The notes beneath the pieces were generated by a model. That model did not search any database. It had not been told where the DNA came from and saw only the letters and a program-made list of their open reading frames with translations. A stretch of 44,846 nucleotides of DNA from a bacterium HR33. GTDB lineage: Bacteria; Gemmatimonadota; Gemmatimonadetes; Gemmatimonadales; GWC2-71-9. Shown here in pieces: positions 15,810-44,846 of the stretch. Each line of letters opens with the position of its first letter. The stretch's first letter is position 1. A program made the translations under genes and the position numbers. The stretch lies in assembly GCA_945889655.1 (NCBI GenBank), contig CAMDCH010000002.1, forward strand, positions 1 through 44,846, written 5' to 3'.

Positions 15810-15818
15810 GAGGCAGGG

Positions 15819-15847: not shown

Positions 15848-15865
15848 GGGTAGATTCAGGAGCCT

Positions 15866-18932: not shown

Positions 18933-18936
18933 CGAC

Positions 18937-24883: not shown

Positions 24884-25038
24884 GAGTTGGAGCCCGACGC
24901 CCGCGTGGTAGGCTTGCGCGCACCGTCGGCCATGCTGCCCTTCTTTACCAGGGTGAGTGCACGCAGATCGCCGTGCACCACGAGGCGAGGGGCCTGGTAG
25001 GGACGTTTCGGATGCGCCAAAGACTTCCTGGGACTCAT
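24880..25038 (-). CDS. lasso-peptide precursor (52 aa: MSPRKSLAHPKRPYQAPRLVVHGDLRALTLVKKGSMADGARKPTTRASGSNS)
   Basis: Track ORF 24880..25083 trimmed to the ATG at 25038, which has GGAGGT 6 nt upstream and overlaps the cyclase stop (ATGA). The leader fits YxxPxLx3Gx5Tx (Y14, P17, L19, G23, T29). The predicted core is VKKGSMADGARKPTTRASGSNS. Confidence 0.75.
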   Translation of the reverse strand: MSPRKSLAHPKRPYQAPRLVVHGDLRALTLVKKGSMADGARKPTTRASGSNS

Positions 25039-26942
25039 GATCTGACCTCCATCTGGGAGCGACTGAAAAATACCCGTAGCCATGCCTCCAAGCCAAGCAG
25101 GTCAACCAGGTCCCACCCATCGGTGGCCTCTTTGCCCGCCAGTCCGGCGGCCATCCGGTCGACCGCCGGCTGAAGGCGACCGCCGTCCACGTAGCCCATC
25201 CTCACCCCCAGGCTACCCGGCCCCAGGCGGGCGCGAATTGCCGCCAGGTCCTGGGCCACGCCGTGGTTCGTGGCCTCGGTGAAGTCGGCCTTCCAGCGGC
25301 GCGCGCGCACCCGTTCCGGCAGGATGCCGCGCATCGCTTCCCTGAGTATGGCGCGCGGGACGCCTTCGTGATTCTGGACCTCGCCCGGGATCGCCATCAG
25401 GAACGCGAGCAAGTCGCGGTCCAGGAATGGGAACGCCGCCTCGAGCCCGTGCGACGCCGCGATCTTGTTGTTCCACTCCATGCACTGCACATGGTACTTG
25501 GACCGGGCTTCGAGGTACAGCGAGCGCGCCTGCGCCGAATGAAACCCGCTTCCCAGCATCGCCGGCCGGTCCGCATCCTTCAGTCCGCCGGCGAGGAACC
25601 GGTCCGAATACCAGGAGCGGGGACGCGCATCGGCAAAGAGCCGCCGCCGCACCCACTTCAGCGGCCCGACCAGCGCGTCCGGCGCGTGGTGGCGGAGCAG
25701 TTCCATCGGCAGGCGGCCGCGGAGCGTAGCCACTTCTTCCCTGCCGAACCACCGCAGGTACTCGCGCGTGTGGCTCCATGCCTTGCGCCAGGCGAAACGA
25801 CTCACGAGATCAACCAGGTACGCCGGCGAGAAGAGCACCTGGTCACCCCAGTGTCCCGAGAGCATCACCCGCGCACCCGCGCGCCCGGCGCGCGCGTCCA
25901 GCTCGCAGGTAACGCCCCACTGGTAATCGAGAAACGGCGCCTCGATGGCACCCACCTGCGTCTCGACCCCGGCTAGCGCACCCGCGTGCACTTCCATTGG
26001 AAAGCGCCCGATGGAGACGCCGTATTCGCGCTCGATTTCCTCGAGATACTCGCGCTCATCGGCGTCCGAACCCGTGGCACCGAGGTACGCGAAACCAAGC
26101 ACGGAGCCCGTTCGTAGCTTCTGCGCCTGGCAAAAGATGGACGATGAATCGAGCCCGCCGCTGGTGGAGACGGCGACCGGGTATGCAGATCGCACGCGTC
26201 GTGCCACCGCCTGGGCAAAGAGCTCCGCGAACGCATCGCGGTACTCCTCGAAGCGGCTAAGTCGAATGGCCGCCGAGGGATCGAAGTCCCAGTAGCGCCG
26301 TGCAACAGCGGCGTCCGTTGTGACGGTGACAACATGCGCCGGGACAACTGCGGAAATCCCTGCAAAGCACGTGACATCCTGCCGGTCTACGGGTCGAGCC
26401 CCTACCAGGAGGAAATCGGCCAATCCCTCGTCATCGGGCGCGGCGCGAATCTCGGGATGCGCCAGGAGGGCCTTGATCTCGGTAGCGAACGCGACGAACC
26501 GTTTGCCGCGGTGGTAGTAGAGCGGCCGGATCCCGATGGCGTCGCGCGCAAGGATGAGGCGGGCCCGTGCCGAGTCGTAGAGCGCGAGGGCGAAATCCCC
26601 GCTGAGATGGTCGACGAACGAGTCGCCAAGGCGAGCGTAGGCCGCGAGCACCACTCTCGCGTCGGTGCTGGATGACGACAGACCCAGCTTCGAGATCAGC
26701 TCAGGACGATTGTCGAGCCGGCCATCCCAGGCCAGCAGGAGGCCCTGCTCGTTGAGCGGCTGCCGTTCGCCGACCTCCTCGGGCGTGATCCACATGCGAC
26801 GGTGCGCGAAGCCGACCGCGCCCGCGATGCACCGGTCGCCGCCATCGGGACCGCGGTGGGCGAGCGTGGCGTCCATGCGTTCGAGGACGGCCGGCGACAG
26901 CGGAGCGCCGTCGGTATTCCACACTCCCGATATCCCGCTCAT
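25035..26942 (-). CDS. asparagine-synthetase-like lasso-peptide cyclase (C protein)
   Basis: Track ORF 25035..27350 trimmed to the ATG at 26942 (MSGISGVWNTDGAPL...). It has an N-terminal Ntn-amidotransferase-like domain and an AsnB-type adenylation domain (AVSTSGGLDSSSIF PP-loop). Confidence 0.9.
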   Translation of the reverse strand: MSGISGVWNTDGAPLSPAVLERMDATLAHRGPDGGDRCIAGAVGFAHRRMWITPEEVGERQPLNEQGLLLAWDGRLDNRPELISKLGLSSSSTDARVVLAAYARLGDSFVDHLSGDFALALYDSARARLILARDAIGIRPLYYHRGKRFVAFATEIKALLAHPEIRAAPDDEGLADFLLVGARPVDRQDVTCFAGISAVVPAHVVTVTTDAAVARRYWDFDPSAAIRLSRFEEYRDAFAELFAQAVARRVRSAYPVAVSTSGGLDSSSIFCQAQKLRTGSVLGFAYLGATGSDADEREYLEEIEREYGVSIGRFPMEVHAGALAGVETQVGAIEAPFLDYQWGVTCELDARAGRAGARVMLSGHWGDQVLFSPAYLVDLVSRFAWRKAWSHTREYLRWFGREEVATLRGRLPMELLRHHAPDALVGPLKWVRRRLFADARPRSWYSDRFLAGGLKDADRPAMLGSGFHSAQARSLYLEARSKYHVQCMEWNNKIAASHGLEAAFPFLDRDLLAFLMAIPGEVQNHEGVPRAILREAMRGILPERVRARRWKADFTEATNHGVAQDLAAIRARLGPGSLGVRMGYVDGGRLQPAVDRMAAGLAGKEATDGWDLVDLLGLEAWLRVFFSRSQMEVRS

Positions 26943-26957
26943 AGATTTGAGTATACC

Positions 26958-27254
26958 ATGCCCGTTCCCGTGATTGCCCCGCACACCACCGTCGTTTCCG
27001 CCGGCGAGCTGCTGTCCAGCGAGTTCGGCGAAGAGTTCATCATCCTGAACCTGAAGGACGGGATTTACTATGGGCTGGATCACGTCGGTGCCCGGGTGTG
27101 GACGCTCATCAAGCAACCGATGACCGTGGGCGCGGTGCGGGATGCGCTGGTGGCGGAGTATGAGGTGGACGTTGCCCAGTGCGAACGCGATCTCGTTGCG
27201 CTGCTCGAGGACCTGGTGACCAAGGGGCTGGTCGAGCTCCGGGCGGACGCCTGA
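26958..27254 (+). CDS. PqqD-family RiPP recognition element (lasso B1 protein)
   Basis: Track ORF trimmed to the ATG at 26958. ...GEEFIILNLKDGIYYGLDHVGARVWTLIKQPMTVGAVRDALVAEYEVDVAQCERDLVALLEDLVTKGLV is a typical PqqD fold signature. Confidence 0.85.
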   Translation: MPVPVIAPHTTVVSAGELLSSEFGEEFIILNLKDGIYYGLDHVGARVWTLIKQPMTVGAVRDALVAEYEVDVAQCERDLVALLEDLVTKGLVELRADA

Positions 27255-27685
27255 GCAAGCTCGCGAAGTTCTTTGGGCTGCCCGCGACCGACAAGTGGCT
27301 GCTCGTTCGCACGGCGTTCGTGATGACGCTGGTGCGGGTGGGACTGGCACTGATGCCCTTCTCGGCGCTGAAACGGCTGGTGGAGAGGGATAGAACCGGA
27401 ACCTCGGAGGGTCTGGCCGACCTTCCCGAGCGGGTTTCCTGGGCGATCGCCGTGCTCTCGTCGCGGGTCCCGGGAAAGAACACCTGCCTTGTCCAGGCCC
27501 TGACCGCCGACTCGCTGCTCCGTCGCGGTGGCTACCGGCCCACGCTGCGCATTGGCGTGGCGGGACGGAATCCGGGTGGGACCATCAAGGCCCACGCGTG
27601 GCTGGAGTGCGAAGGCCGAGTGATCACCGGCGGACTCGAGGACCTATCCAGCTACTCGGTGCTGACGTCGCCCGGACGGGGATGA
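27251..27685 (+). CDS. transglutaminase-like cysteine protease (lasso B2 leader peptidase)
   Basis: NTCLVQALTADSLLRRGGYRPTLRIGV...IKAHAWLECEGRVITG contains the Cys and His of the B2 catalytic site. The family-like N-terminus LSKLAKFFGLPATDKW begins at the CTG at 27251, which overlaps the B1 TGA. The alternative start is the track GTG at 27179 (76-nt overlap with B1). Confidence 0.72.
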   Translation: MSKLAKFFGLPATDKWLLVRTAFVMTLVRVGLALMPFSALKRLVERDRTGTSEGLADLPERVSWAIAVLSSRVPGKNTCLVQALTADSLLRRGGYRPTLRIGVAGRNPGGTIKAHAWLECEGRVITGGLEDLSSYSVLTSPGRG

Positions 27686-28782
27686 CCGAGGCGGTCGCCC
27701 GGATTCTCCGCGGCGAGGCCCCCGCATGGAGCGAGGTCGGCGCGACACCCGCCGCCTTTCTCGAATACTGCGAGCGGGAAGACCTGATTCCCCTCGTTCA
27801 TCACAACCTGCACAGTGGTTGGCCCGTGGAGGTCTCGGCGGCGCTGGAGCGCGCGGCCCGCGATGCCGCAGCCCGCGAGATGGTCCGGCGACAGGAAATC
27901 ACCCGCGTTCTCACCCTGCTCGACGAGGCCGGCATCCGGCCGATCGTCTTCAAAGGAACCGCCCTCGCCTATCTCGTCTATCCGGCGCCCGGACTTCGCC
28001 CGCGCAACGACACCGATCTTTTGATCCGCCGCGCTGACGTGGACCCAGCGCGCGCCGTTTTCGCGGCAACCGGATACGTAGAGCCCGCATACAGTGGTGA
28101 CGAGCTGCTCTTCCGGCAGTTTGAGGCGCAGCGGGAAGATTCTCTCGGTGTCCACCATGCGTTCGATGTCCATTGGGAGATCAGCACCCAGTCCGCCTTT
28201 GCGAACCTGCTCTCCTACGATGATCTCGCGAATTACAGCGTGCCGGCGCCGATGCTGGGGGCCGCCGCGCGAGCGGCGGGGCCCGTGGAGGCGCTGCTCA
28301 TCGCGTGCGTCCATCCAGCCATGCACCATCGCAATGAAGAACGGCTGATCTGGCTGTTTGACGTGCACCTGCTGGCGGGACGGCTCGCACCGGAGGAATG
28401 GAAACGGTTCAGCGCGACTGCCCTGTCACGAAAAACAGGAGTCGTATGCGCATACGCGCTGCGACATGCGCATGACCTGCTTGGAACCGCGATACCCCCT
28501 CACATCATCAACAATCTGGAGTCCGCAGCGGGCGATGAGCCAACCGCCGCCTACCTCGACCGGTCGCGCTCGTGGCGGCATGAGGTCGGTGCGAACATCC
28601 GCGGGCTTTCATCGTGGAGTGACCGGCTCGGCTTGCTGCGGGAGATCGCGTTTCCGCGGCCGAGCTACATACTAGAGAAGTACGAATGGAAGGACACGCT
28701 GCCGGCTCGGCTCGGACTACCGTGGCTCTACTTCAGGCGCGCGATGGAAGGGACCTGGAAGGTGGTGTCCGGGAAAAAATGA
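27682..28782 (+). CDS. nucleotidyltransferase-family protein of the type found in lasso/RiPP clusters
   Basis: Track ORF trimmed to the ATG at 27682, which overlaps the B2 stop (ATGA). IVFKGTALAYLVYPAPGLRPRNDTDLLI carries the G-x...D-x-D nucleotidyltransferase signature. Confidence 0.78.
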   Translation: MTEAVARILRGEAPAWSEVGATPAAFLEYCEREDLIPLVHHNLHSGWPVEVSAALERAARDAAAREMVRRQEITRVLTLLDEAGIRPIVFKGTALAYLVYPAPGLRPRNDTDLLIRRADVDPARAVFAATGYVEPAYSGDELLFRQFEAQREDSLGVHHAFDVHWEISTQSAFANLLSYDDLANYSVPAPMLGAAARAAGPVEALLIACVHPAMHHRNEERLIWLFDVHLLAGRLAPEEWKRFSATALSRKTGVVCAYALRHAHDLLGTAIPPHIINNLESAAGDEPTAAYLDRSRSWRHEVGANIRGLSSWSDRLGLLREIAFPRPSYILEKYEWKDTLPARLGLPWLYFRRAMEGTWKVVSGKK

Positions 28783-33530: not shown

Positions 33531-33794
33531 CGTTCGTTCTCCTGATTGCTGTTGGGGGCTGGCGGAGTAGCCGAACCCCGGTTGCGTCCCCTGCAATGTG
33601 ACATGATGCACGGCGGCATGGTGAGGTCGCAGTCGGAACAATGGAACATTGTGGCGTTACCGCAACGTGGCATGCTGCCCACGGTCGCGCATCTGTATTT
33701 CCCGAATCCCTGATTCCTCAATGCTTTAGCTCTCTCTAGAACAGTGCACGTGTCTTGCTTGTTCCCTCTGCGCGCCCGTACAACAGGAGAGACG

Positions 33795-34601
33795 ATGCGC
33801 AGGATAGCCTGGAGAGTCGTTGCGATGACCATGGCAGTGGTCTCGCTCAGCTGCAAACACCCGCTCAAGCCGGACGAGGTAGACACCTCAGTCCCGCAGC
33901 CCGCGTCCGCCAACGAGCCGGCCGGCTTCAAGCCGATTGCCAATCGCGGTTTTCTGAATCTCGTGGAAGACAACTGGATCTGGGGCGGCGACCTGAGTGC
34001 CTGGGCGCTGCGGAGCGAGCCGGACGCCCCGCAATCCAAGCCGTCCGTCGCGCGGATCACCCTCCCGGCAGGCTTTGCGTCCGGGGCCAGCCCGGTCCAT
34101 CTCGAGCGCAACCTGCGCGAGAACGATCATTTCTACCTGAACACGTGGATCCGGGTTTCCGACAACTGGAAGCCGAACCAGATCCAGGACGCCATGATGG
34201 CGATCTGGGGGGGCGGAAAGCCCCGGATCTTCTGGGGCTGGCGGCCGGACTCGACCGGAGAGCGCAAGATGCCGAACGCACTCATCCTGACTGAAGGGGT
34301 GCCGGGAGGCTCGCTCTGGCTCGATCCGAATGTCGTGAAAGACGCGGCGATCAAGGTCAACCAGTGGCATCACATCGAGATCGAAGTGCGCACCACCGGC
34401 GGCACCAACGGCAACGGGCGGTTCGTCTGCTGGCTGGACGGGGTGAAGATCTCATCGTATGACGATGTCCCGTACGGACTGCCGGCGGGCCAGCGGTGGG
34501 CCATGATCCAGGTCGGGCCGACCTGGGGCGGCCTCACCGAGCCGCTTGACCAGTCGCAGTGGGTGGAGTTCGACCATCTCTACATGAGCGCGCCGCAGTG
34601 A
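33795..34601 (+). CDS. lipoprotein of unknown function (beta-rich, possibly lectin/lyase-like fold)
   Basis: Track ORF trimmed to the ATG at 33795 (AGGAGAG upstream). Lipobox MAVVSLSC. I recognise no catalytic motif. Confidence 0.6.
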   Translation: MRRIAWRVVAMTMAVVSLSCKHPLKPDEVDTSVPQPASANEPAGFKPIANRGFLNLVEDNWIWGGDLSAWALRSEPDAPQSKPSVARITLPAGFASGASPVHLERNLRENDHFYLNTWIRVSDNWKPNQIQDAMMAIWGGGKPRIFWGWRPDSTGERKMPNALILTEGVPGGSLWLDPNVVKDAAIKVNQWHHIEIEVRTTGGTNGNGRFVCWLDGVKISSYDDVPYGLPAGQRWAMIQVGPTWGGLTEPLDQSQWVEFDHLYMSAPQ

Positions 34602-34912
34602 CCAAGGCTTGGGGGGTTCTCGTGGCGCTGCTGGCTCTCCCGTTCAGCATCGCCCTGGGTCGTGAGCTGTTCGCGGCCAGCCGGTGCGTGGAGCGCGGCG
34701 GTCTCTACGATTACTTCCGAGCGCTCTGCTACATGTCGGCCGAGCAGGCGTTCGACCCGCGTGGGGCGAGCCCGCTGCTCTGGATCTCGGGCTATCTCGT
34801 ATTGAAAATCATCGCCGTTGCCATCATCGCCGTCATGCCGTGGAAGGTACCGGTGCCGGCGTGGTGGCGGCGGCGTGTAGGAAGTCTCGTGGGGCAAAAA
34901 GCCGCCGTCTGA
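34598..34912 (+). CDS. small membrane protein (about 104 aa), unknown function
   Basis: The GTG at 34598 overlaps the preceding TGA (GTGA). Two hydrophobic helices (WGVLVALLALPFSIAL, LLWISGYLVLKIIAVAIIAV). A terminator follows. Confidence 0.45.
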   Translation: MTKAWGVLVALLALPFSIALGRELFAASRCVERGGLYDYFRALCYMSAEQAFDPRGASPLLWISGYLVLKIIAVAIIAVMPWKVPVPAWWRRRVGSLVGQKAAV

Positions 34913-34933
34913 AGTCGGTTTGTCCCGGAAAAC

Positions 34934-34961
34934 GCCCCCGAGTAGTTGGCGGGGGCTTTTT
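34934..34961 (+). terminator. intrinsic terminator
   Basis: GCCCCCG-agtagttgg-CGGGGGC followed by TTTTTCTTT. Confidence 0.65.
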
Positions 34962-35063
34962 CTTTGTACCCCCCGTCTGTAGCGGTTTCCCTGTTTGACA
35001 CGTCCCGGCGGTGGGGTCATGTTCTCCGGGCTTTGCCTCCTGGTCTCGATCGAGGAGCCGCAC

Positions 35064-36017
35064 ATGGAACGTGCCGCGCCTATCCCAGCTCAACTCGCAC
35101 ACCTCCGGGCCTCTGACGCCGCCGGAGCCCTCGTCGCAGGCCAAAGCATCCTCCTCACCGCCGTGGCACTCTGGCTGTCGTCGCGACCGGAGACGCTGCC
35201 CTGGCTCGCGGGCCAACTGCTGCTCGCGCTGGCCCTGGTGCAATGGTTCTCACTCCTCCACGAATGCGGGCACGAGACGCTCTTCCTGACGCGGCACTTG
35301 CATCTCCCGCTGGGCCATCTTGCCGCGGTCTTCTCGCTCATCCCGTTCTACAACTGGAAGCGGGTGCACGCGCGGCACCACAAGTGGACGGGATGGCAGG
35401 ACGTGGACCCGACGACGGCGGCGCTCGTCCCGCGCCCCCTGGGACGCGCCGAGCGCACGCTCGTGAACGTGTGCTGGAAGTACTGGATCCCGCTTTTCTC
35501 CGTGCTGTACCGCCTGAACAATTTCTGGAACTGGCCACGACTGCGCGGGCTCTTCGCGAAGGCGCGAGACCGGCGGCTCCTCGGGCTGAACCTGCTCGCC
35601 ATGCTCGGCGTCTATGCCGCGCTCGTCTGGTTCGTCGGGCCTGTCCTCCTGCTCCGGATGACCGGCCTCGCGGTGCTCCTCTCGCTCGTGGCGGAAGACC
35701 TCATTCTGCTCAGCCAGCACACGCACGTCCCGCAGCAGGTGAGCCACGGCGAGCCGGTGCGTCCCTTCCCCACCGTCGAGCAGGAAGTCTTTACGCGGTC
35801 GCTCGCCTTCCCGGGCTGGCTCTCGTCGCTGCTACTGCACATCGACGCGCACGAGCTGCACCACATGTATCCCTTCGTTCCCGGCTACCGGCTCTCCGGC
35901 ATCTCGTACGAGACGGAGAACGAGATCCACTGGTGGACGTGGGTTCGGCGGGCGCGCGCGATGCCGGGAGAGCTCTTTCTCTTCCATAACCGCCTGGAAA
36001 CGGGCGCCGACATCTGA
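35064..36017 (+). CDS. membrane fatty-acid desaturase family protein
   Basis: Track ORF trimmed to the ATG at 35064 (GAGGAG upstream). Three His boxes: HECGH, HARHH and HELHH. Confidence 0.88.
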   Translation: MERAAPIPAQLAHLRASDAAGALVAGQSILLTAVALWLSSRPETLPWLAGQLLLALALVQWFSLLHECGHETLFLTRHLHLPLGHLAAVFSLIPFYNWKRVHARHHKWTGWQDVDPTTAALVPRPLGRAERTLVNVCWKYWIPLFSVLYRLNNFWNWPRLRGLFAKARDRRLLGLNLLAMLGVYAALVWFVGPVLLLRMTGLAVLLSLVAEDLILLSQHTHVPQQVSHGEPVRPFPTVEQEVFTRSLAFPGWLSSLLLHIDAHELHHMYPFVPGYRLSGISYETENEIHWWTWVRRARAMPGELFLFHNRLETGADI

Positions 36018-36078
36018 GACGCGCGACCTGACCCGGCTCGATCCGCTCGTCTGCGCGCTCTTCCTCATCGTCGCGTTC

Positions 36079-36615
36079 GTGCTCGCAGGCCTGGCGCACT
36101 CGGCGTGGCTGCGGGCGCCGGTCTCGCGCCGACTGGCCATTCCCCTCGACGGCGGGGCGCGCGTCCGCGGACGCCGCGTCTTTGGCGACAACAAGACCGT
36201 GCGCGGCTTCGCGGTCATGATCCCCGCGACATCGATCGCGTTCGTCATCCTCGCGACCCTCGTGCGCCGCATCGCGCCCGGCCTGGCCGATGGACTCTGG
36301 CCCCTCACGACCGTCGAAATGGCCGCGCTTGGCGCCTGGGCCGCGTTCGGGTTCATGCTCGGCGAGCTCCCCAACTCGTTCGTCAAGCGCCAGCTCGATA
36401 TCGCGCCGGGCGCCGCGCCTCGCGGACCCGCCGCCAGAACCGTGGGCTTTCTCATCGACCGGTATGACTCCATCCTCGGCATGCTTGCCATCGTGACGCT
36501 CGTCGCCGGCGCGCCGTGGGCCACCTGGGGGTACGTAGCCCTGCTGGGACCGACGATCCATTGGTCGTTCAGCGTCCTGCTCTATCGGCTCGGCGTCAAG
36601 GCGCGCCCCGCATGA
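36079..36615 (+). CDS. CDP-archaeol synthase-like (CarS/DUF46 family) integral membrane cytidylyltransferase
   Basis: VFGDNKTVRGF, GELPNSFVKRQL and FLIDRYDSILG match the conserved FGxxKTxRG / NSFxKR / DxxD blocks of the CarS family. The frame stays open upstream with hydrophobic sequence, so the true start may lie before the GTG at 36079 (for example CTG at 36028). Confidence 0.72.
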   Translation: MLAGLAHSAWLRAPVSRRLAIPLDGGARVRGRRVFGDNKTVRGFAVMIPATSIAFVILATLVRRIAPGLADGLWPLTTVEMAALGAWAAFGFMLGELPNSFVKRQLDIAPGAAPRGPAARTVGFLIDRYDSILGMLAIVTLVAGAPWATWGYVALLGPTIHWSFSVLLYRLGVKARPA

Positions 36616-39305
36616 CGACGACCGCCGGGCGACCGCCCACCTTCACTGCGGCGGCGGAACCATTCTGCGTTTCCCTCCTCGCGGACACCGATCGCACCCT
36701 GGTCGGCGGCAAGGCGCATGCGCTGGCTGCCATGCTTCGGCTCGGTGTACGGGTGCCGGCGGGTTTCGTCATCACCACCCGCGCGTTCGCGGCCCATCTC
36801 GACCAACACGCGCTGGCAGATCGCATCGCTCAACTCTGCGACGGGTTGACCCCGCGCGACACCGCCCATATGAAGGACGTGTCAGCGACCATCGCGTCGG
36901 TCGTGCGCAGCGCTTCGCTCGCATCCGGGCTGCGCGACCAGGTTCTGCATGCCGCACAGCCCCTCTTGAGGAATGGGCCGGTGGTGGTGCGAAGCTCCGC
37001 GGTGGGTGAAGACTCGAGCACCGGATCCTTTGCCGGGCAGCTCGACTCCGTACTGCACGTCGCCTCGCAGGCCGATCTCGAGCGCGCGCTGCTCACCTGC
37101 TGGGCGTCCTATTGGTCCGAGCGCTCCCTGTTCTACCGGGTGGCGCGCGGCGTGGCGCTGGACGGCATGGGGGTGGTGATACAGTCGCAGGTGGCCGCGC
37201 GCGCGTCGGGAGTGATGTTCAGCGATGCGAGGGCCGGCGCCATCATGGTCGAATATGGACCAGGCCTCGCCGATGCACTGGTCGCCGGTACCATCGATCC
37301 CGGGCGGATCACCATAGATCCCGCGACGCGCCGCGTCACGCGGTTTGCCGCATCCGCGGAGCGCGCCGTCGACGAGCTGGTGTTGTCGGCGCCATCCATC
37401 GCGGCGCTCGCCAATGCCGGGTCCGGTCTCGAGCGCCTGTTCGGCGCTCCCCAGGACATTGAGTGGGCGATGGATTCCGGCGGTACGCTCTTCGTGGTGC
37501 AATCGCGGCCGATCACCGCGCCCGTGCAGTGGCCGCACCAACCGGCGTCCTCCGGGCCGGAAGCGCCGCCGGCGCATTGGTCCAACGCGAACGTCAACGA
37601 GAACTTTCCCGACCCGATCTCGCCCCTGCTCTACTCCATCGCGACGGCAGGGTACACCAGCTACTTCAGCAATCTCGCGCGAGCCCTTGGCATCGCGCCG
37701 GCTCGCATCGCCGCCCTGGCGCCGGCCTTCCGCCAGATCATCGGCGCCCACGGCGCGCGGATGTACTACAACCTGACGAACATCCACGCCATCCTGCGTC
37801 TTGCTCCATTTGGCGACGCATTGGCCGCGTCGTTCGACAGCTTCGTCGGGGCGGACGGGCCCGCGACAGCCGCCTCTCCTCGTCGTGGACTGGTGACGAA
37901 CGCGGTGGAAGCCGCTGTCGTTGCGATGAAGGCGTTCTGGCAGTACCGCTCCCTCCCAGCGCGCATTCGCCGGTTCGAGCGCACGGTTGACGCCTTCGCC
38001 GCGCGTACGCACCCCGAGCGCCTGAAGGACGCGCCGCTCGAGCAGCTCGGCGGCGCGCTGGATGATTTCATGGACATCCGCTGCCACCGGTGGCTGGACG
38101 CGTCGCTCGCCGATGCGGCGGCCATGGTGTGCTACCGGGCGCTTCAACGACTGCTCGCGCATGCCTACCCGGCCGGGGAGCGTGGCGCCGTCCATACCTC
38201 GCTGCTCACGGCGATCCCCGACGTGGTCAGCGCCGAGCCTGTTTACGCGCTCTGGGCGCTCTCCCGCGTCATCCGCGAGGATGAGGCATTGTCCCGACTC
38301 TTCCAGGCCGAGGGCCCGGAAGTCATCCTCTCCGCCCTGGCGAACGATCCACGGTTCACCGCGTTTCAGAAAGCGTTCGCCGAGTACCTGGAGCGTTGGG
38401 GCTTTCGCTGCTCTTCCGAGCTGATGCTCACGGTGCCGAGCTTCCAGGAGGATCCCGCACCTCTCTTCGATATGCTGCGCGCCTACGCCCGGCTGGACGG
38501 CGACTCGCCGGTGGAGGCGCTGGCGCGCCAGGCCGCGGAGCGCGAGGCGCTGACCGCGCGCCTGGCCGAAGAGCTCGCGTGGCGGCCGGTCTTTGGATGG
38601 CTCCCTTTCCCGACCTGCGCCCAGCTGCTCCGCGTGCTCCTGCCGTGGACCCATGCGGCCATTCGGTTCCGCGAGCGCGCTCGGCTCAAGCAGGCGCTCC
38701 TCTACAGCCGGTGCCGGCGCATTGCACTCGCTCTGGGCGAGCGACTGTCCGCGCGCGGCGTGCTTCCCACCCGCGACCACGTGTTCTGGCTGAGCGTCGA
38801 CGAGCTGCGCGAACTCGCCGCGGGAAGCGCCATGTACCCGCGGGCCACCCGTGAGCTCGTCGAGACCCGCGCCCGCGCGCACGCGGTGCTCACGGCAACG
38901 ACGCCCCCCGACGCCTTCGTCCTCGCCCGGGGCGAGTACCTGCCCGTCGGCTCGGTAGCGCCGGCAGTGGCGCGTGAGGCCTCCACCACGCTCACCGGCA
39001 CGCCCGCATGCGGCGGCCGCGTCACCGGGCGCGCGACCGTGCTGCGCGACGTCACCGAGGCGGCGCGGCTCGCGCGCGGCGACATCCTGGTCACCAGGCA
39101 GACCGACCCGGGATGGGCCCCGGCGTTCTTCCTGATCGCCGGGCTCGTGATCGAGCGCGGCGGCATGCTCTCCCACGGGGCGATCATCGCCCGCGAGTTC
39201 GGCATTCCCTGCGTCGTTGCGGTACGCGGCGCGACGGAAGCCATTCCCGATGGCGCCACCATCACGGTCGATGGAGACCATGGCAACGTCCAGCTCGCCG
39301 ATTGA
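36612..39305 (+). CDS. PEP-utilising-enzyme family phosphotransferase with rifampin-phosphotransferase-like domain order (N-terminal ATP-grasp, long middle domain, C-terminal swivel His domain)
   Basis: Track ORF trimmed to the ATG at 36612 (ATGA overlap). N-terminus GGKAHALAAMLRLGVRVPAGFVITT (PPDK_N-like). C-terminus GDILVTRQTDPGWAPAFFLIAGLVIERGGMLSHGAIIAREFGIPCVV (mobile His domain). No C-terminal PEP/pyruvate TIM-barrel domain. Confidence 0.86.
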   Translation: MTTTAGRPPTFTAAAEPFCVSLLADTDRTLVGGKAHALAAMLRLGVRVPAGFVITTRAFAAHLDQHALADRIAQLCDGLTPRDTAHMKDVSATIASVVRSASLASGLRDQVLHAAQPLLRNGPVVVRSSAVGEDSSTGSFAGQLDSVLHVASQADLERALLTCWASYWSERSLFYRVARGVALDGMGVVIQSQVAARASGVMFSDARAGAIMVEYGPGLADALVAGTIDPGRITIDPATRRVTRFAASAERAVDELVLSAPSIAALANAGSGLERLFGAPQDIEWAMDSGGTLFVVQSRPITAPVQWPHQPASSGPEAPPAHWSNANVNENFPDPISPLLYSIATAGYTSYFSNLARALGIAPARIAALAPAFRQIIGAHGARMYYNLTNIHAILRLAPFGDALAASFDSFVGADGPATAASPRRGLVTNAVEAAVVAMKAFWQYRSLPARIRRFERTVDAFAARTHPERLKDAPLEQLGGALDDFMDIRCHRWLDASLADAAAMVCYRALQRLLAHAYPAGERGAVHTSLLTAIPDVVSAEPVYALWALSRVIREDEALSRLFQAEGPEVILSALANDPRFTAFQKAFAEYLERWGFRCSSELMLTVPSFQEDPAPLFDMLRAYARLDGDSPVEALARQAAEREALTARLAEELAWRPVFGWLPFPTCAQLLRVLLPWTHAAIRFRERARLKQALLYSRCRRIALALGERLSARGVLPTRDHVFWLSVDELRELAAGSAMYPRATRELVETRARAHAVLTATTPPDAFVLARGEYLPVGSVAPAVAREASTTLTGTPACGGRVTGRATVLRDVTEAARLARGDILVTRQTDPGWAPAFFLIAGLVIERGGMLSHGAIIAREFGIPCVVAVRGATEAIPDGATITVDGDHGNVQLAD

Positions 39306-39939
39306 CGCGGCCACGGCCTACCTGCGGGAGCGCTATGCGTCTCCCCTTTTCGTCGTGCTGGCCGCGCTGCTCACCGCGACAGGGTTCGCCATTTCACCCG
39401 GAGAGGCAGGCCCGGCGGCGCTCTTCCGGTCCCTGGCGATCGCCTTCCTGCTCGTGCTCTCCTTCCGCATCGGCGACGACCTGGCAGACGCGCCACGCGA
39501 CCGCGTGCGTCATCCCGATCGCGTGCTCGTCCGCGCGCCGGAGCGCGGCCCCTTCATCGCCCTGCTCGCAGCCACGACGGCCCTCGCCGTCGCAATCATC
39601 GCCACCGCGCCACAACCCTTCGCGCGGCTCATTGCCATCGGCGGGGCCGCACTGGTGCTCGGCGCCTGGTATGCCGCGCGTGGCGACGCAAAGCCGCTCG
39701 TCGCCGCCCACGTCGTTCTCGCGAAATACCCCGTCATCGCTCTCGCCGCGGCGCCGGCGTTCCCGCGCAGCGTGACCGGATCCGTCGTGGCGATACTCGC
39801 CGCGCTCTATGCCGTCCTGTGCGCGTACGAAACGTTCCACGACCCGGTGCTCCGCGGTTCGCCGGCCGCACGCCGTCTCGCCCTGCTCGAGGCGGTGCTG
39901 GTCGCTCCCCTGCTCCTGCTCGGAGGACTCCTTCGGTGA
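39280..39939 (+). CDS. polytopic membrane protein, short UbiA-prenyltransferase-like
   Basis: FRIGDDLADAPRDRVRHPDR resembles the first Asp-rich motif of UbiA enzymes (NDxxDxxxD...R..RP). It has about 6-7 hydrophobic helices. I see no clear second Asp-rich motif. Start is the ATG at 39280 or 39271, overlapping the previous gene. Confidence 0.5.
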   Translation: MATSSSPIDAATAYLRERYASPLFVVLAALLTATGFAISPGEAGPAALFRSLAIAFLLVLSFRIGDDLADAPRDRVRHPDRVLVRAPERGPFIALLAATTALAVAIIATAPQPFARLIAIGGAALVLGAWYAARGDAKPLVAAHVVLAKYPVIALAAAPAFPRSVTGSVVAILAALYAVLCAYETFHDPVLRGSPAARRLALLEAVLVAPLLLLGGLLR

Positions 39940-40925
39940 CCGCTACCGCTTCACCCCGCGAGCGTACGCCGCTTTCGCCGAGCGGACCGGCGCCGGACGC
40001 GTTTGAGACCGTGCCCTGCTATCTCTGCGGCTCCTCCGAGTGCACGCCCTTCATCGAGGCCGAAGACGACCTCACCGGCAAGCCGGGCCGCTTCCACTTC
40101 GTGACGTGCACGAGGTGCGGACTGCGGTATCAGAGTCCCCGCCTTTCGGTGGAACACATCAAGGCGTACTACGACGACGAATACATCGCGCACCGGAAGA
40201 AGAGCGACTGGGGAGTACTCACGGGCTTCTTCAACTGGGCGATGGACCGCCACGACCGGCAGAAGGATGCGATCGTGCGCCGTTACCTGGCGCTCAACGC
40301 CCATAGCCGAGTGCTCGACGTGGGGTGCGCGGTAGGAACGTTCCTGCAAAAGATGCGTGCGCGATATGGCACGCATGTGGCGGGCGTGGATTTCAAGGAT
40401 CTCCGCGCGCACCCGTCGCTGGCGGGCGTCGACTTTCGCTGCGGACTGTTCTACGAGCAGGATTTCGGCCAGGAGCGATTCGACCTGATCACCATGTGGC
40501 ACTTTCTCGAGCACGACTACGACCCGATGCGGACCCTCGCCACAGCCCGTGAGCTGCTCGCGGCGAACGGACGGCTGGTGATCGAGGTGCCGAGGCTCGA
40601 CAGCCTCACCTTCCGGATGTATCGCCACCGCTGGCCCGGCCTCCAGGCGCCGCAGCACACCGTGTTGTACGACAAGCGGGCGCTGCTCGCCGCCGTCGAC
40701 AAGGCGGGGCTCGAGGTGGAAGCGTTTCTGCCCTATGGAGCCTTCCCGGCGTTCTTCTACTTCTTCGCCGGCGCCGCGTTCACGATGCTGCGGGGGCGCG
40801 GCTTGAATCTCTCCAGGGCGATCTACCCCTACTTCGTCGGGCAGCTCCTCTTCGCCCCCCTCCTCGCGTTCGAGAAGCAGCTCAACTTTGCCATGCAGAC
40901 TGTCGTCTGCCGGAGGCGCGCATGA
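39936..40925 (+). CDS. class I SAM-dependent methyltransferase with N-terminal Cys4 zinc-ribbon
   Basis: The GTG at 39936 overlaps the preceding TGA. CYLCGSSEC...CTRCGLRY is a zinc ribbon. VLDVGCAVGTFL is SAM motif I. Confidence 0.84.
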   Translation: MTATASPRERTPLSPSGPAPDAFETVPCYLCGSSECTPFIEAEDDLTGKPGRFHFVTCTRCGLRYQSPRLSVEHIKAYYDDEYIAHRKKSDWGVLTGFFNWAMDRHDRQKDAIVRRYLALNAHSRVLDVGCAVGTFLQKMRARYGTHVAGVDFKDLRAHPSLAGVDFRCGLFYEQDFGQERFDLITMWHFLEHDYDPMRTLATARELLAANGRLVIEVPRLDSLTFRMYRHRWPGLQAPQHTVLYDKRALLAAVDKAGLEVEAFLPYGAFPAFFYFFAGAAFTMLRGRGLNLSRAIYPYFVGQLLFAPLLAFEKQLNFAMQTVVCRRRA

Positions 40926-41740
40926 CCCACGCTGCGACTCCCGTCGCCGAGCGCGCACCGTCCGCGCTGCACGACACCGGTGGCACGAGCCTGAAGACCC
41001 GGATCCGCCTTGCCGCCACCATGGCCGTGCTCAGCGCCGGCGCGCTCGTCATGCTCATCGCGGCCATTCCGACGCTCGGGCTCGCGCGGCGGTTCTATTC
41101 GGAGGTCATCGGCCGGGCGACCGGGAATGCGATCCTCCGCCTGTGGGGCCTGCACTACGTCGTGCACCGTTCGCGGCCGCTTCCGGCGGGCCAGGCGGTC
41201 TACATCAGCAATCACACGTCCACCATCGATCTCTTCCTGCTCATCGCCCTCGCACTGCCGCGCACCCGGTTCTTCCTGGCCGGTTTCCTCCGCAAGCTCG
41301 TTCCGCTCGGCGTCGTCGGTTACCTCATCCGCATCTTCTGGACGGTGCCGCAGCAGTTTCCAGAGCTGCGGCGGCGCATCTTTGCGCGCGCCGATCGCAT
41401 CCTGCGCCGCAGCGGCGATTCGGTGTATCTGAGCCCCGAGGGCAAGCGGGTCGTCAGCGGCGAGATGGGCCACTTCAACAAGGGCTCCTTCCATCTCGCC
41501 ACCAGCCTCCGCGCTCCGATCATCCCCATCTACTTCGCCATTCCGCAGGACATCAATCCCGGCATGGGCTTCGACGCGAAACCCGGGCGGATCGACATCT
41601 GGTTCCTCCGCCCCATCGAGACGCGCGACTGGCGGCTCGAGGACCTGGAAGAAAATCGTGACGCCGTGCGCGACCTCTTCGTACGCGTGCACGACGCGGT
41701 ACGCGCGACCGGGCGGCCGGCGGCGGAGCTGACCGGATGA
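40922..41740 (+). CDS. lysophospholipid/1-acyl-sn-glycerol-3-phosphate acyltransferase family (AGPAT/PlsC-like)
   Basis: N-terminal TM helix. HX4D motif in YISNHTSTIDLF. LSPEGKR block. ATGA overlap at both ends. Confidence 0.87.
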   Translation: MTHAATPVAERAPSALHDTGGTSLKTRIRLAATMAVLSAGALVMLIAAIPTLGLARRFYSEVIGRATGNAILRLWGLHYVVHRSRPLPAGQAVYISNHTSTIDLFLLIALALPRTRFFLAGFLRKLVPLGVVGYLIRIFWTVPQQFPELRRRIFARADRILRRSGDSVYLSPEGKRVVSGEMGHFNKGSFHLATSLRAPIIPIYFAIPQDINPGMGFDAKPGRIDIWFLRPIETRDWRLEDLEENRDAVRDLFVRVHDAVRATGRPAAELTG

Positions 41741-43548
41741 CGCACGACGGTCGCACGCTGGTCGACCTGCTGCGCACTCGCGCGCAGGGCGACGAGCGCC
41801 GCCTCGGCTACACATTCCTGGTGGACGGCGAGCGCGAGGGCGCCACGCTGACCTACGAGGACCTCGACCGCCGTGCGCGCGCCATCGCCGTCCTGCTGGC
41901 CGATCGGGGGGTGCGGTCCGGGGATCGCGCGCTGCTCCTCTACCCCCCCGGACTCGATTTCATCGCCGCGTTCTTCGGTTGCCTGTACGCCGGCGTTGTC
42001 GCGGTCCCGTTGTACCCGCCGCACCCGTCGCAGATCGCGCGCGCGCTCCCCCGGCTCCTCGCGATCACCGCGGACGCGGAGGCAGGCGTGGTGCTCTGCA
42101 CCGGGGCGGTGGCAGCGATGGCCGCCGACGTCTCGCGGCTGGCGCCGGCCCTGCACGGGCTCAGCTGGCTCGCCACCGACACGCTCGCCGATGGCTCGGC
42201 GGAGTGGCGCGAGCCCGACATCGACGGTGATTCGCTGGTCTTCCTTCAGTACACGTCGGGATCGACCGCGGCTCCGAAAGGCGTGATGGTCAGCCACGCC
42301 AACCTGCTCCACAACCTTGGCTACGCCTGCTACGCCGCCGAAAACGACCGCACCACCATCGCCGTGTCGTGGCTCCCCGTCATTCACGACATGGGGCTCA
42401 TCGAAGGCGTGCTCCAGCCGGTGTACGCCGGCTACCCGACCTATCTCATGGCGCCGGCATCCTTTCTTCAGCGCCCCAGTCGCTGGCTCGAGGCCATCAC
42501 GCGCTACCGCGCGACAAACAGCGGCGGGCCCAACTTCGCCTACGACCTTTGCGTCCGAAGGATCGCGCCGGCCGGGCGTGAGGCGCTCGATCTCTCATCA
42601 TGGCGCGTGGCATACAACGGTGCCGAACCGATCCGGCGTGATACGCTGGTCGCGTTTCACGCTGCGTTTCGTCGCTCGGGTTTCCGCTGGAAGGCCTTCT
42701 ATCCGGTCTACGGCCTCGCCGAGGCCACGCTCGTGGTGTCGACCGGCCGAAGGAACTATGAGCCCGTGGTCTGCGAGGCTGACGCCGATCGCCTCGCGGA
42801 GACGGCGACGCTGGCGGCGGGCGCCGGGAATCCGCGCGTCGTGCCCCTGGTGTCGAGTGGACCGGCCTTGTACGGCACCCGGGTCCTCATCGTCGACCCC
42901 GAGTCGCTCGAACGCTGCCCGCCCGATCGCGTCGGGGAGATCTGGATCGATTCGCCGAGCGTGGCGCAGGGGTATTGGCGTCGCCCGGCCGAAAGCGCCG
43001 AGTGCTTCCAGGCCCGCACCAGTGATGGCGACGGGCCGTTTCTCCGCACCGGCGACCTGGGGGTGCTGCGCGACGGCGAGCTGTTCGTCACCGGGCGGCT
43101 GAAGGATCTGCTCATCGTGCGCGGCTACAAGCACTATCCGCAGGACCTCGAGCTCACCGCCGAGCGGCAGCATGAGATCATCCGGCCCGGCTGTGTGGCG
43201 GCGTTCGCGATCGAAGTCGGCGGCCATGAAACGGTGGCCATCCTCGCCGAAGTGAACCAGCGCGGACTCTCGGCAGACCACCACGAACGCGAAGCGACGC
43301 TCGCGCAGGTCGTCACGTCCGTGCGGACCGCCGTTGCTGACCAGCACGGCATCCAGCTCGCCGCGGTTTCGCTGATCGGTATTGGCGCCCTTCCGAAGAC
43401 ATCGAGCGGGAAGCTCCGGCGCCAGGCCTGTCGTGCAGCATTTCACGATGCCTCGCTGGACGAGCTGACGCGGTGGACGCTGCCGGTGTTCGTAGACCAC
43501 ACCGACGACGCGCCATCCATCAGTCGAGCGCTTCGCACCGGATCATGA
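41737..43548 (+). CDS. fatty acyl-AMP ligase / acyl-CoA synthetase family adenylating enzyme (FadD32-like)
   Basis: LGYTFLVDGE...LTYEDLDRRARAIAVLL...FLQYTSGSTAAPKGVMVSHANLLHN...GRLKDLLIVRGYKHYPQDLE, as in FAAL-type enzymes. Confidence 0.92.
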   Translation: MTHDGRTLVDLLRTRAQGDERRLGYTFLVDGEREGATLTYEDLDRRARAIAVLLADRGVRSGDRALLLYPPGLDFIAAFFGCLYAGVVAVPLYPPHPSQIARALPRLLAITADAEAGVVLCTGAVAAMAADVSRLAPALHGLSWLATDTLADGSAEWREPDIDGDSLVFLQYTSGSTAAPKGVMVSHANLLHNLGYACYAAENDRTTIAVSWLPVIHDMGLIEGVLQPVYAGYPTYLMAPASFLQRPSRWLEAITRYRATNSGGPNFAYDLCVRRIAPAGREALDLSSWRVAYNGAEPIRRDTLVAFHAAFRRSGFRWKAFYPVYGLAEATLVVSTGRRNYEPVVCEADADRLAETATLAAGAGNPRVVPLVSSGPALYGTRVLIVDPESLERCPPDRVGEIWIDSPSVAQGYWRRPAESAECFQARTSDGDGPFLRTGDLGVLRDGELFVTGRLKDLLIVRGYKHYPQDLELTAERQHEIIRPGCVAAFAIEVGGHETVAILAEVNQRGLSADHHEREATLAQVVTSVRTAVADQHGIQLAAVSLIGIGALPKTSSGKLRRQACRAAFHDASLDELTRWTLPVFVDHTDDAPSISRALRTGS

Positions 43549-44846
43549 GCTCCAGCGCCGTCCGGGCGGCCCGGGACCTCGAATCCCGACTCGCGAGCGT
43601 CGTAGCTACCACGCTTGGCGTGCCCGTCGACCTGGTGCACTCCGACACGCCGTTCACCCTCCTCGGCATGGACTCGCTGGGCGCGGTGGAGCTCACGGGG
43701 GCGGTCGAGAGCGCGCTCGGCGTCGCCCTGCCGCTGACCGCCGTGCACGAGTATCGCGACGTCGCCTCGCTGGCCCGGTTCATCGAGCTGGGCGTCGCGC
43801 CGCCCGCGCGCATGTCCACGCTCGAGCGGATGCGGGCGGACGCCGTGCTCCCCAGCGACATCGCGCCGCCGCGCGGAGCCCCGTCGCTGACCCGGGATGC
43901 CCGCGACCTGCTGCTTACCGGCGCCACCGGCTTCGTCGGCGCGCACCTGCTCGGCGCGCTGCTGGACGCGTCCCCCGTCACCGTGCACTGCCTCGTGCGC
44001 GGCACCGACGCCGCGCAGCGCGTGCGCGCGAACCTCGAACGGTATGGCCTGTGGACGCACGACACGTCGCGCCGCGTGCGCATCGTCAACGGCGATCTGA
44101 CCCAACCGATGTTCGGCCTCGGCACGGCGGAGTACGCTGCGCTGGCCCGGCGCATCGGCGCCATCTATCACGGCGGTGCGGCAGTGAACTGGGTGCACGG
44201 GTACGAGGGCCTCCGCGACGCCAACGTCCTGGGTACGCGCGAAGTCCTCCGGTTCGCCTGCCACGACGCTGCCAAGGCGGTGCACTTCCTCTCCAGTCTT
44301 GGCGTCTGCTATTCCACCCGGGCACCGCGGACGGTGAATGAGACGGCCGACGTCTTCGCGCATGCCGACGGGCTCCACCTGGGGTACGCACAGAGCAAGT
44401 GCGTGGCCGAGGAGCTGGTGCGAAGCGCCGGCGCGCGCGGACTCCCGGTGACGATCCTGCGGCCGGCGTTGGTGTCGGGTCACAGCGTGACCGGCGCATC
44501 CAATACCGACGATCTCCTCGCCCGCTTTATCGCAGGGTGCATCCAGATGCGTGCGGCGCCCGATCTCGACTGGCGGGTGGATTGCGTGCCGGTGGACCAT
44601 GTCGCCCGCGCGGTCGTCGTGCTGTCACGCGGCCACGAGAAGGGCACCGCCATCGCGCATCTCGCGAACGCGCGCGCGCGACACTGGCGGGAGTGCATCC
44701 TCTGGATGCGTCTCTGCGGCTACGACATCGAGCTCCTGCCCTATCGCGAGTGGATGCGCGTGCTCCGGGCGAGCGCCGGCGCGGATCACCCGCTGCATGC
44801 GCTGCGGCCCTTTTTCGTTCACGCACTCCCCGGCGAAGACCACCTC
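43545..44846 (+). CDS. acyl/peptidyl carrier protein fused to a thioester reductase (NAD-binding SDR) domain; runs off the window edge
   Basis: Not in the ORF track (no stop in the window). The ATG at 43545 overlaps the FAAL stop (ATGA). Carrier Ser in LLGMDSLGAVEL. Reductase Rossmann motif LLTGATGFVGAHLL and YAQSK (YxxxK). Confidence 0.87.
   Translation, partial: MSSSAVRAARDLESRLASVVATTLGVPVDLVHSDTPFTLLGMDSLGAVELTGAVESALGVALPLTAVHEYRDVASLARFIELGVAPPARMSTLERMRADAVLPSDIAPPRGAPSLTRDARDLLLTGATGFVGAHLLGALLDASPVTVHCLVRGTDAAQRVRANLERYGLWTHDTSRRVRIVNGDLTQPMFGLGTAEYAALARRIGAIYHGGAAVNWVHGYEGLRDANVLGTREVLRFACHDAAKAVHFLSSLGVCYSTRAPRTVNETADVFAHADGLHLGYAQSKCVAEELVRSAGARGLPVTILRPALVSGHSVTGASNTDDLLARFIAGCIQMRAAPDLDWRVDCVPVDHVARAVVVLSRGHEKGTAIAHLANARARHWRECILWMRLCGYDIELLPYREWMRVLRASAGADHPLHALRPFFVHALPGEDHL

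Follow-up and report, generated by a model that had tools for sequence, protein, structure and literature searches.

The stretch of DNA analysed here, 44,846 nucleotides of contig CAMDCH010000002.1 (assembly GCA_945889655.1, bacterium HR33, Gemmatimonadota) and referred to below as the window, ends on the forward strand in one translationally coupled operon (35019–44846), as read from overlapping start and stop codons at 36612, 39280/39305, 39936, 40922, 41737 and 43545. In order, its genes encode a desaturase-family protein (DES), a CarS-like membrane protein, a rifampin phosphotransferase (RPH)-type dikinase, a UbiA-like membrane protein, an S-adenosylmethionine (SAM) methyltransferase (MT), a PlsC-type acyltransferase (AT), a fatty acyl-AMP ligase (FAAL) and an acyl carrier protein (ACP) joined to a thioester reductase (R). 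This is apparently a conserved bacterial operon that has so far gone undescribed. In the preferred reading, to which a probability of roughly 0.42 is given, it would use a fatty alcohol to make a dedicated phospholipid, following the logic of archaeal ether lipid synthesis. The reading is built on the family and fold assignments, conserved catalytic residues, operon structure, synteny and gene fusions reported below, and from these we infer every step, substrate and product in the scheme. That the operon serves a dedicated CDP-lipid or phospholipid pathway fed by the reductase is probable; the specific ether-forming step, in which the UbiA-like protein would use an alkyl diphosphate, is proposed tentatively.

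An earlier note on this DNA had described the CarS-like, RPH-type and UbiA-like genes as neighbours on the forward strand, and all three were found where it had placed them. The conserved blocks of CDP-archaeol synthase that it had seen in the 178-aa protein are present in the open reading frame (ORF) at 36079–36615 as GDNKTVRG, SFVKR and DRYDS. This protein scores above threshold against Pfam PF01864 (47.3 bits, cut-off 22), a domain present in all 120 CarS-like homologues among the matches listed, and aligns by sequence with A. pernix CarS (ApCarS, PDB 5GUF; E 6e-4). In this alignment GDNKTVRG, SFVKRQ and DRYD fall on the ApCarS cytoplasmic-loop motifs GDGKTxEG, SFVKRR and DQLD, and these loop motifs are invariant across 22 homologues. 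An AlphaFold2 (AF2) model of the 178-aa form, from which part of helix 1 is absent, has a pLDDT of 85 and only one fold match in the PDB, again 5GUF (E 2.5e-3, TM-score 0.53–0.59, 27% identity); as modelled, the protein would match the five-helix ApCarS membrane fold. The score against the NCBIfam CarS equivalog NF003114 lies below its cut-off (64.5 bits against 148), and the CarS-like profile matched 1594 clusters at 50% identity in a search of 1.84 billion representatives. Judged by these profile scores, the protein belongs to a large bacterial clade and is not an archaeal CarS orthologue. The description of the operon's products as archaeal-type lipid enzymes was not upheld in the sense of archaeal orthologues, given this score, the large bacterial clade and the lack of linked isoprenoid, GGGPS and glycerol-1-phosphate (G1P) genes.

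The start of the CarS-like gene probably needs correction. Its homologues are about 195 aa long, and the in-frame upstream peptide LTRLDPLVCALFLIVAFV resembles their N-termini. The 17 residues downstream of a CTG at 36028–36030 are conserved at the protein level, and an ATG stands at the equivalent position in locus L005, which is 84% identical. The CTG is favoured as start because of the homologue length, the matching upstream peptide and the ATG of L005, and the gene probably spans 36028–36615 (195 aa), unless an N-terminally shortened protein is made from the GTG at 36079. The CTG itself points to a rare start codon, to such a shortened protein or to a sequencing error.

The next gene had been assigned to an RPH-type enzyme and not to a PEP synthase, and this assignment was borne out. 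The 929-aa ORF contains a PPDK_N ATP-grasp domain (residues 61–335, 202 bits), a large middle substrate domain and a C-terminal swivel phospho-histidine domain (PEP-utilizers, 854–923). The pyruvate/PEP-binding domain PEP-utilizers_C (PF02896) was absent in the Pfam scan, and Rph_4th (PF27448) is found mid-protein in orthologues. Listeria RPH gave the best PDB matches (E ~1e-71), and residues K34, R127, S146, R687-E688, R691 and H855 correspond to K22, R117, T136, R666-E667, K670 and H825 of that enzyme (RPH-Lm), with T136 and K670 conservatively replaced by Ser and Arg. These RPH-Lm residues are needed for both phosphotransfer steps, and RPH chemistry runs via a pyrophospho-histidine intermediate (PMC4844700). 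Identity with PEP synthase was ruled out by the missing PEP-utilizers_C domain, the C-terminal swivel and the RPH best matches.

The domain order of the dikinase, without a PEP/pyruvate domain, is shared with RPH-Lm (PDB 5FBS/5HV1) and with the PigC/RedH/HapC ligases. Unlike RPH, its gene always lies in the lipid operon, and scores fall below cut-off against the NCBIfam equivalogs for RPH (NF041857, 332 of 999 bits; NF000283, 236 of 1700), as well as for PigC (285 of 1300) and RedH (311 of 1350). The centre of the middle domain (residues ~308–508) gave no phmmer alignment to RPH. Because the gene is always found within the lipid operon and is at times fused to membrane enzymes, the dikinase presumably acts on a lipid alcohol or lipid phosphate, as opposed to an antibiotic.

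The third gene had been called UbiA-like, and this call stood in part: the first Asp-rich motif and a predicted DGGGP-synthase/UbiA-like fold support it, the Pfam score lies below threshold and the second Asp-rich motif is degenerate. The 219-aa protein carries the motifs FRIGDDLADAPRDRVRHPDRVLVR, LAKYP and YETFHD, and its DDLADAPRD fits the first UbiA motif (N/D)DxxDxxxD, with a basic residue (R81) following. In 30 sequences D66, D67, D70, D74, R63 and R81 are invariant, as are the Arg, Lys and Tyr residues flanking the first motif, and the family shares the invariant block FRxWDDLADxxxDxxxHPxRVLVR, the motif LAKYP and a Glu that is nearly invariant. The protein evolves fast (34 homologues found, mean column identity 31%), a precomputed PF01040 match is present in a minority of homologues, and a sequence search of the PDB gave no match. 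The AF2 model (pLDDT 93.9) consists of 7–8 long helices, and Foldseek ranked the DGGGP synthases 6M31/7BPU first, followed by ApUbiA, AfUbiA, Rv3806c and FPPS. TM-scores by query were 0.57–0.65 with E-values of only 3.5e-3 to 0.2, and soluble FPP synthases scored alike; the protein is about 60–70 residues shorter than these targets, the UbiA fold having 8–9 helices and a cap domain. In 71/71 loci its gene is flanked by those of the dikinase and of MT.

The prominence of DGGGP synthases among these structural matches would also suit a hybrid isoprenoid/acyl lipid, in which the UbiA-like protein etherifies a lyso-lipid with farnesyl diphosphate (FPP), geranylgeranyl diphosphate (GGPP) or another housekeeping prenyl diphosphate in the manner of DGGGP synthase and the dikinase, as a lipid kinase, provides the CarS-like protein with a phosphomonoester. 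To our knowledge, allylic donors are the sole established UbiA chemistry. The trio of CarS-like protein, dikinase and UbiA-like protein is also retained in variants without the reductase, and archaeal CarS prefers isoprenoid substrates (PMC9385802). However, genes for prenyl diphosphate synthase, GGGPS, geranylgeranyl reductase and G1P dehydrogenase are not among the conserved neighbours, linkage to FAAL, ACP and R is strong in most phyla, and the APH kinase fused to the reductase would be left unexplained. A hybrid lipid is considered quite unlikely.

To investigate the conservation of the operon, 111 CarS-like relatives were collected with one genome per species, and 80/111 loci, all of them from metagenome-assembled genomes (MAGs), were examined with tblastn and a hidden Markov model (HMM) of the UbiA-like family; denominators are the loci long enough to show the gene. 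The order DES-CarS-RPH-UbiA-MT-AT-FAAL-ACP-R-APH is kept in about 70 loci across seven groups, namely Gemmatimonadota, Acidobacteriota, Planctomycetota, Myxococcota, Burkholderiales, Verrucomicrobiota and Nitrospinota. DES lies upstream of the CarS-like gene in 72/77 loci, and the counts for the other genes are given in Table 1. This collinear arrangement is far beyond chance and recurs in at least seven phyla. The closest relative of the operon is found in a MAG labelled Thermoanaerobaculia, followed by relatives in Gemmatimonadaceae.

It should also be noted that the operon is at times duplicated. Two copies in opposite orientation lie ~12 kb apart on the Gemmatimonadaceae contig CAWBKI010000013.1 (L006 and L007), and the Acidobacteriota locus L052 carries a partial tandem duplication (8984–20499) with DES-CarS-RPH followed by DES-CarS-RPH-UbiA-MT-AT. 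A second, shorter PEP-utilizing/RPH-like gene (~725–745 aa) was seen in the Pirellulales loci L064, L074 and L083 at ~16000–18265 on the reverse strand, convergent to the operon and directly past AT, with FAAL, ACP-R and APH absent nearby.

Variants and fusions reduce the cluster to a core. The smallest form is that of the cultured Thioalkalivibrio paradoxus, a minimal cluster of PssA-like, CarS-like, dikinase, UbiA-like and R-APH genes, lacking ACP, FAAL, DES, MT and AT; these five genes represent six activities, each of which could be used once in the proposed route. In a MAG of Oligoflexus sp. (L086), DES is followed by CarS, AT and dikinase fused in one polypeptide, a gene of 235 aa which is UbiA-like by position only and has no Pfam match, MT and a second AT. 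A triple fusion of this kind (P0306) is found in the cultured Oligoflexus tunisiensis, whose protein WP_141735044.1 is annotated 'CDP-archaeol synthase'. In the profile search the CarS-like domain was fused to the dikinase, to AT, to AT and dikinase together and, in one representative, to an NAD_binding_4 reductase. Since the trio of CarS-like protein, dikinase and UbiA-like protein is retained through these variants and fusions, it is the invariant core of the cluster.

Three CarS-like proteins (P0230, P0239 and P0252) carry a conserved membrane module of ~130–230 aa N-terminal to the CarS-like domain, with the motifs RKxVH and (A)D(G/T)xAxxxG...KSxxGS. No match to it was found in Pfam, NCBIfam or the PDB. 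The module is reminiscent of phytol or dolichol kinases, an unconfirmed likeness that was not used as evidence.

The fatty-acid activating context of the trio, which the earlier note had described as FAAL, carrier and reductase genes, proved real by Pfam matches and translation. FAAL scores 380–440 bits against the NCBIfam FAAL subfamily models. Orthologues of the reductase consist of PP-binding, NAD_binding_4 and APH domains, the gene continuing in relatives into an APH/EcKL-type kinase with an intact HNDFNPRN...DWE site. AT has the H(X)4D motif as HTSTID together with SPEGKR, and weakly matches the NCBIfam model for the lyso-ornithine-lipid O-acyltransferase OlsA. Of all proteins in the cluster, MT shows the strongest conservation (57–76% identity across phyla); it has a zinc-ribbon-like Cys4 motif (CxxC...CxxC) near the N-terminus, and its C-terminal tail is hydrophobic. 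DES contains the His boxes HECGH, HARHH and HELHH. In the few variants seen, DES and MT are either both there or both missing, which hints at a pair that desaturates and then methylates.

Across 82 loci the only further conserved neighbour family is a CDP-alcohol transferase. This PssA-like CDP-alcohol phosphatidyltransferase comes after APH in at least 21 loci, L005 among them, and lies ~1.7 kb upstream of DES in Pirellulales; because the linkage outlasts rearrangement, the protein is taken to share a pathway with the operon. It exceeds the cut-off of PF01066 (~50 bits, cut-off 22), and its serine-type motif DxxDGxxARx8GxxxDxxxD is present in 29 loci. The best NCBIfam matches were pssA (68–90 bits, cut-off 107) and archaetidylserine synthase (~84–89 bits, cut-off 200–240). 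By these matches it is a member of the CDP-alcohol transferase family with a putative serine-type headgroup. GGGPS, G1P dehydrogenase, prenyl diphosphate synthase and geranylgeranyl reductase were not among the conserved neighbours of the same 82 loci.

Some of these features would also fit a phospholipid without glycerol. Here the reductase would make a fatty alcohol or diol and a kinase would phosphorylate it directly; the product would be turned by the CarS-like protein into a CDP-alkanol and by the PssA-like protein into a lipid of alkyl-phosphoserine type, leaving the UbiA-like protein a side role; a diol could come from a hydroxy fatty acid, and AT would esterify the second hydroxyl if present. 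The straight fusion of a CarS-like domain to an NAD_binding_4 reductase, the lack of a glycerol-phosphate gene among the conserved neighbours and the T. paradoxus cluster without an acyltransferase speak for it, as does the weak match of AT to OlsA, which acylates a 3-hydroxyacyl hydroxyl. However, no task would be left for the invariant and always adjacent UbiA-like protein, nor for one of the kinases, the CarS-acyltransferase fusions better suit the sequence from lyso-phosphatidic acid (lyso-PA) to PA to CDP-lipid, and the glycerol lipid bound by ApCarS, the nearest structure, has two chains (PMC9385802). A glycerol-free lipid is on balance unlikely.

An identification of DES as a CarF/PEDS1-type plasmanyl desaturase was unsupported, as it is an ordinary PF00487 protein whose weak best NCBIfam match is the Bacillus delta-5 desaturase Des. 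A vinyl-ether (plasmalogen-type) lipid might be made by PEP-synthase-like chemistry, with the reductase stopping at the aldehyde and the dikinase phosphorylating its enol to a 1-alkenyl phosphate, much as PEP synthase forms an enol phosphate. The alkenyl group would then pass to the hydroxyl of a glycerol, phosphate or diphosphate being released; this is exceedingly doubtful. Terminal reductases of the non-ribosomal peptide synthetase (NRPS) type are generally known to release aldehydes often, and the step from enol phosphate to enol ether has general precedent in MurA and EPSP synthase. However, a fold related to the enolpyruvyl transferases is absent, no UbiA fold is known to carry out substitution at a vinylic carbon, and the desaturase of the operon could supply unsaturation in the ordinary way. 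The remaining point in favour is the homology of the dikinase to PEP synthase and to PigC/RedH, seen in NCBIfam matches; PigC and RedH are reported to activate an aldehyde oxygen (PMC13534948).

In the preferred archaeal-style scheme, FAAL would put a fatty acid on the carrier and the reductase would free a fatty aldehyde or alcohol. The APH-type kinase and the RPH-type dikinase could then turn the alcohol into an alkyl phosphate and an alkyl diphosphate; alternatively, the dikinase may move the pyrophospho group in one step, which is conceivable because RPH uses a pyrophospho-histidine intermediate. The UbiA-like protein would transfer the alkyl group from this diphosphate to a hydroxyl of glycerol phosphate, creating the ether bond, and the remaining hydroxyl would be esterified by the PlsC-type or a housekeeping acyltransferase. 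The CarS-like protein and CTP would convert this phosphatidate analogue into a CDP-lipid, cytidylyl transfer being proposed because of the motifs of the protein and the linked CDP-alcohol transferase. The PssA/archaetidylserine-synthase-like transferase is expected to attach a serine-type headgroup, and DES and MT may tailor the chain or the headgroup. The earlier note had sketched a speculative route in which a fatty alcohol is phosphorylated, transferred or ether-linked by the UbiA-like protein and CDP-activated by the CarS-like protein. The invariant trio, the APH kinase, the PssA-like protein and the CarS fusions lend support to that outline, and its chemistry is wholly inferred.

Several points weigh against this scheme. 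The CTP-transferase fold also includes CTP-dependent lipid kinases. We know of no UbiA-family enzyme that uses a saturated, non-allylic alkyl diphosphate, the donors known to us being allylic (or phosphoribosyl pyrophosphate, PRPP). The 219-aa protein scores below threshold against the Pfam UbiA family PF01040 (20.6 bits, cut-off 34.2), and its second Asp motif is degenerate: in the candidate YETFHD (183–188) only E184 is nearly invariant, and the His-Asp pair is absent in several homologues. Neither G1P dehydrogenase nor GGGPS, nor any other linked gene specific to glycerol phosphate, is among the conserved neighbours, and no lipid data for carriers of the cluster were found in the literature. 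In addition, the reductase and APH were not seen nearby in Oligoflexus and in several Pirellulales loci, so that such variants either lack the alcohol source and second kinase or encode them at another site.

The closest parallel is the archaeal pathway from DGGGP synthase through CarS to archaetidylserine synthase, whose three folds apparently occur here in one operon. The motifs GDxKTxxG, SFxKR and DxxD are held in common with archaeal CarS, the first Asp-rich motif with archaeal UbiA enzymes, and the PssA-like protein carries the serine-type motif DxxDGxxARx8GxxLDSLxD. The logic would be shared as well, with a lipid diphosphate, an ether bond, CDP activation and a headgroup. In contrast, the operon proteins are not orthologues of the archaeal enzymes and widely miss the NCBIfam equivalog cut-offs for CarS and archaetidylserine synthase, the UbiA-like protein is ~70 residues shorter than archaeal UbiA enzymes with a degenerate second motif, and GGGPS, G1P dehydrogenase and isoprenoid genes are not linked. 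The hydrocarbon apparently comes from a fatty acid (FAAL/ACP/R), and one chain is probably ester-linked via AT.

Among bacterial systems, the elb operon is linked to ether lipids in Myxococcota and Acidobacteriota (PMC9131029; bioRxiv 10.64898/2026.06.23.733905). ElbD of Myxococcus xanthus unites reductase, acyl-activating, ACP and AGPAT parts in one protein, whereas these are separate neighbouring genes in the window. The elb operon has no CarS-like, RPH-like, UbiA-like, APH, MT, DES or PssA-like gene, and its ElbA/ElbE epimerase family, the HAD phosphatase ElbB and ElbC (PMC9131029) were not among the conserved neighbours in the 82 loci. Identity of the two operons was ruled out, the FAAL/ACP/R/AT module alone being in common. 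The presumed product class, alkyl or alkenyl glycerolipids, resembles that of AGPS (alkyl-dihydroxyacetone phosphate synthase), PlsA/PlsR and Ger, but homologues of these are absent from the operon and the proposed UbiA-fold transferase would represent a different mechanism. CarS was not detected in the Cloacimonetes MAGs of a study on bacteria with archaeal-type lipid genes (PMC7852524), and 'CarS' is nowhere mentioned in the text of a survey that examined phospholipid genes by phylogenomics (PMC6431249). No description of the cluster was found in the literature searched, whose coverage left out subscription journals.

At the nucleotide level (window GC ~67%), the 5' boundary of the operon is marked by a terminator-like hairpin which ends the upstream unit (Table 1). 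Its folding energy is −20 kcal/mol with a weak z-score of −1.45. A scan for consensus promoters and terminators over 33600–36200 gave no match; the hairpin was overlooked by the scanner because its loop is 9 nt long. Window positions 35043–44846 and L005 8965–18708 are 84% identical, and this similarity is confined to the operon: it begins at 35043, and the 9 kb upstream are unrelated between the two contigs. As the similarity stops at the 5' boundary, the operon occupies different genomic contexts in close relatives, and the differing flanks suggest horizontal transfer or rearrangement.

Table 1. Features of the operon and its 5' boundary in the window, with the number of loci in which each gene is collinear
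Feature	Coordinates	Strand	Remarks	Collinear loci
Terminator-like hairpin	34934..34965	+	GCCCCCG-N9-CGGGGGC then U run; read from sequence by eye	
DES, 332 aa	35019..36017	+	ATG start; PF00487 67.5 bits	
CarS-like CTP-transferase-family membrane protein	36028 or 36079..36615	+	195 aa from CTG or 178 aa from GTG	
RPH-type ATP-dependent dikinase, 897 aa	36612..39305	+	ATGA overlap with CarS-like stop	72/73
Short UbiA-superfamily-like membrane protein, 219 aa	39280..39939	+	Start 26 nt inside dikinase end	71/72
Class I SAM methyltransferase (MT), 329 aa	39936..40925	+	GTG start, GTGA overlap; Methyltransf_23 91.6 bits	71/72
PlsC/AGPAT-type O-acyltransferase (AT), 272 aa	40922..41740	+	PF01553 60.4 bits	67/70
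Fatty acyl-AMP ligase (FAAL), 603 aa	41737..43548	+	AMP-binding 233.9 bits	56/65
Acyl carrier + NAD(P)-dependent thioester reductase (ACP-R)	43545..44846	+	Cut by window end; motifs GMDSL, GATGFVG, YAQSK	57/63
APH				56/63

The unrelated flanks of the window and of L005 suggest mobility, and together with the patchy taxonomic distribution this could be taken to indicate an NRPS-like secondary-metabolite cluster, which would make a small lipidic signal or antibiotic and in which the RPH-type enzyme would be a PigC-like condensing enzyme or a self-resistance kinase. A FAAL with carrier and terminal reductase is a typical loading and release module of natural products (PMC11837247). Such a role is very improbable, as five parts of the operon (CarS-like, UbiA-like, PlsC-type, PssA-like and DES) are membrane enzymes of phospholipid type, the dikinase is found fused with CarS-like and acyltransferase domains, and condensation, polyketide synthase (PKS) and transporter genes are not conserved beside the operon.

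Elsewhere in the window, the reverse strand carries an ABC exporter (22323–23960), an HPr-kinase-C-like protein (23957–25120) and a 771-aa asparagine-synthase homologue (25035–27350), followed on the forward strand by an NTP_transf_5 nucleotidyltransferase (27598–28782). With cyclase, kinase, nucleotidyltransferase and exporter, the region 22323–28782 looks like a candidate cluster for a lasso-peptide-type ribosomally synthesized and post-translationally modified peptide (RiPP). The region 9632–15090 (reverse strand) contains a histidine biosynthesis operon with IGPD, HisH, HisA and HisF fused to or overlapping with HisIE; HisF falls into a singleton cluster. Beside this operon, a protein of 749 aa joins an aminotransferase to a HAD phosphatase domain and may be a HisC-HisN-type fusion.

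The formation of ether bonds in aerobic bacteria is only partly known: the ether step of the Elb system is unknown, and AGPS, PlsA/PlsR and Ger miss some of the producers. Bacterial ether lipids underlie widely used palaeoclimate proxies and bear on the debate about the 'lipid divide'. The operon offers a compact and testable candidate pathway, with two cultured strains and only five genes in T. paradoxus. In its widest form, which is doubtful, the proposal would have bacteria of many soil and aquatic phyla (Gemmatimonadota, Acidobacteriota, Planctomycetota, Myxococcota and others) making fatty-alkyl ether phospholipids in archaeal style: the RPH-type dikinase, with or without the APH kinase, would turn a fatty alcohol into an alkyl diphosphate, a minimal UbiA fold would accept this non-allylic donor for the ether bond, a bacterial CarS and the PssA-like protein would complete the lipid, and the DES/MT pair would add mid-chain methyl branches. 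In this form it would also provide a new, oxygen-independent mechanism of ether-bond formation and a candidate source of the alkyl glycerol ethers and the branched ether lipids of soils, which are unexplained in aerobes. If the preferred scheme is true, UbiA-fold chemistry would be extended to non-allylic donors, RPH-type dikinases would gain a physiological role beyond antibiotic resistance and prodiginine synthesis, and CarS-type CDP activation would be widespread in Bacteria. Should the ether step prove wrong, the cluster would still define a pathway dedicated to a phospholipid, hitherto unrecognised and occurring in at least seven phyla.

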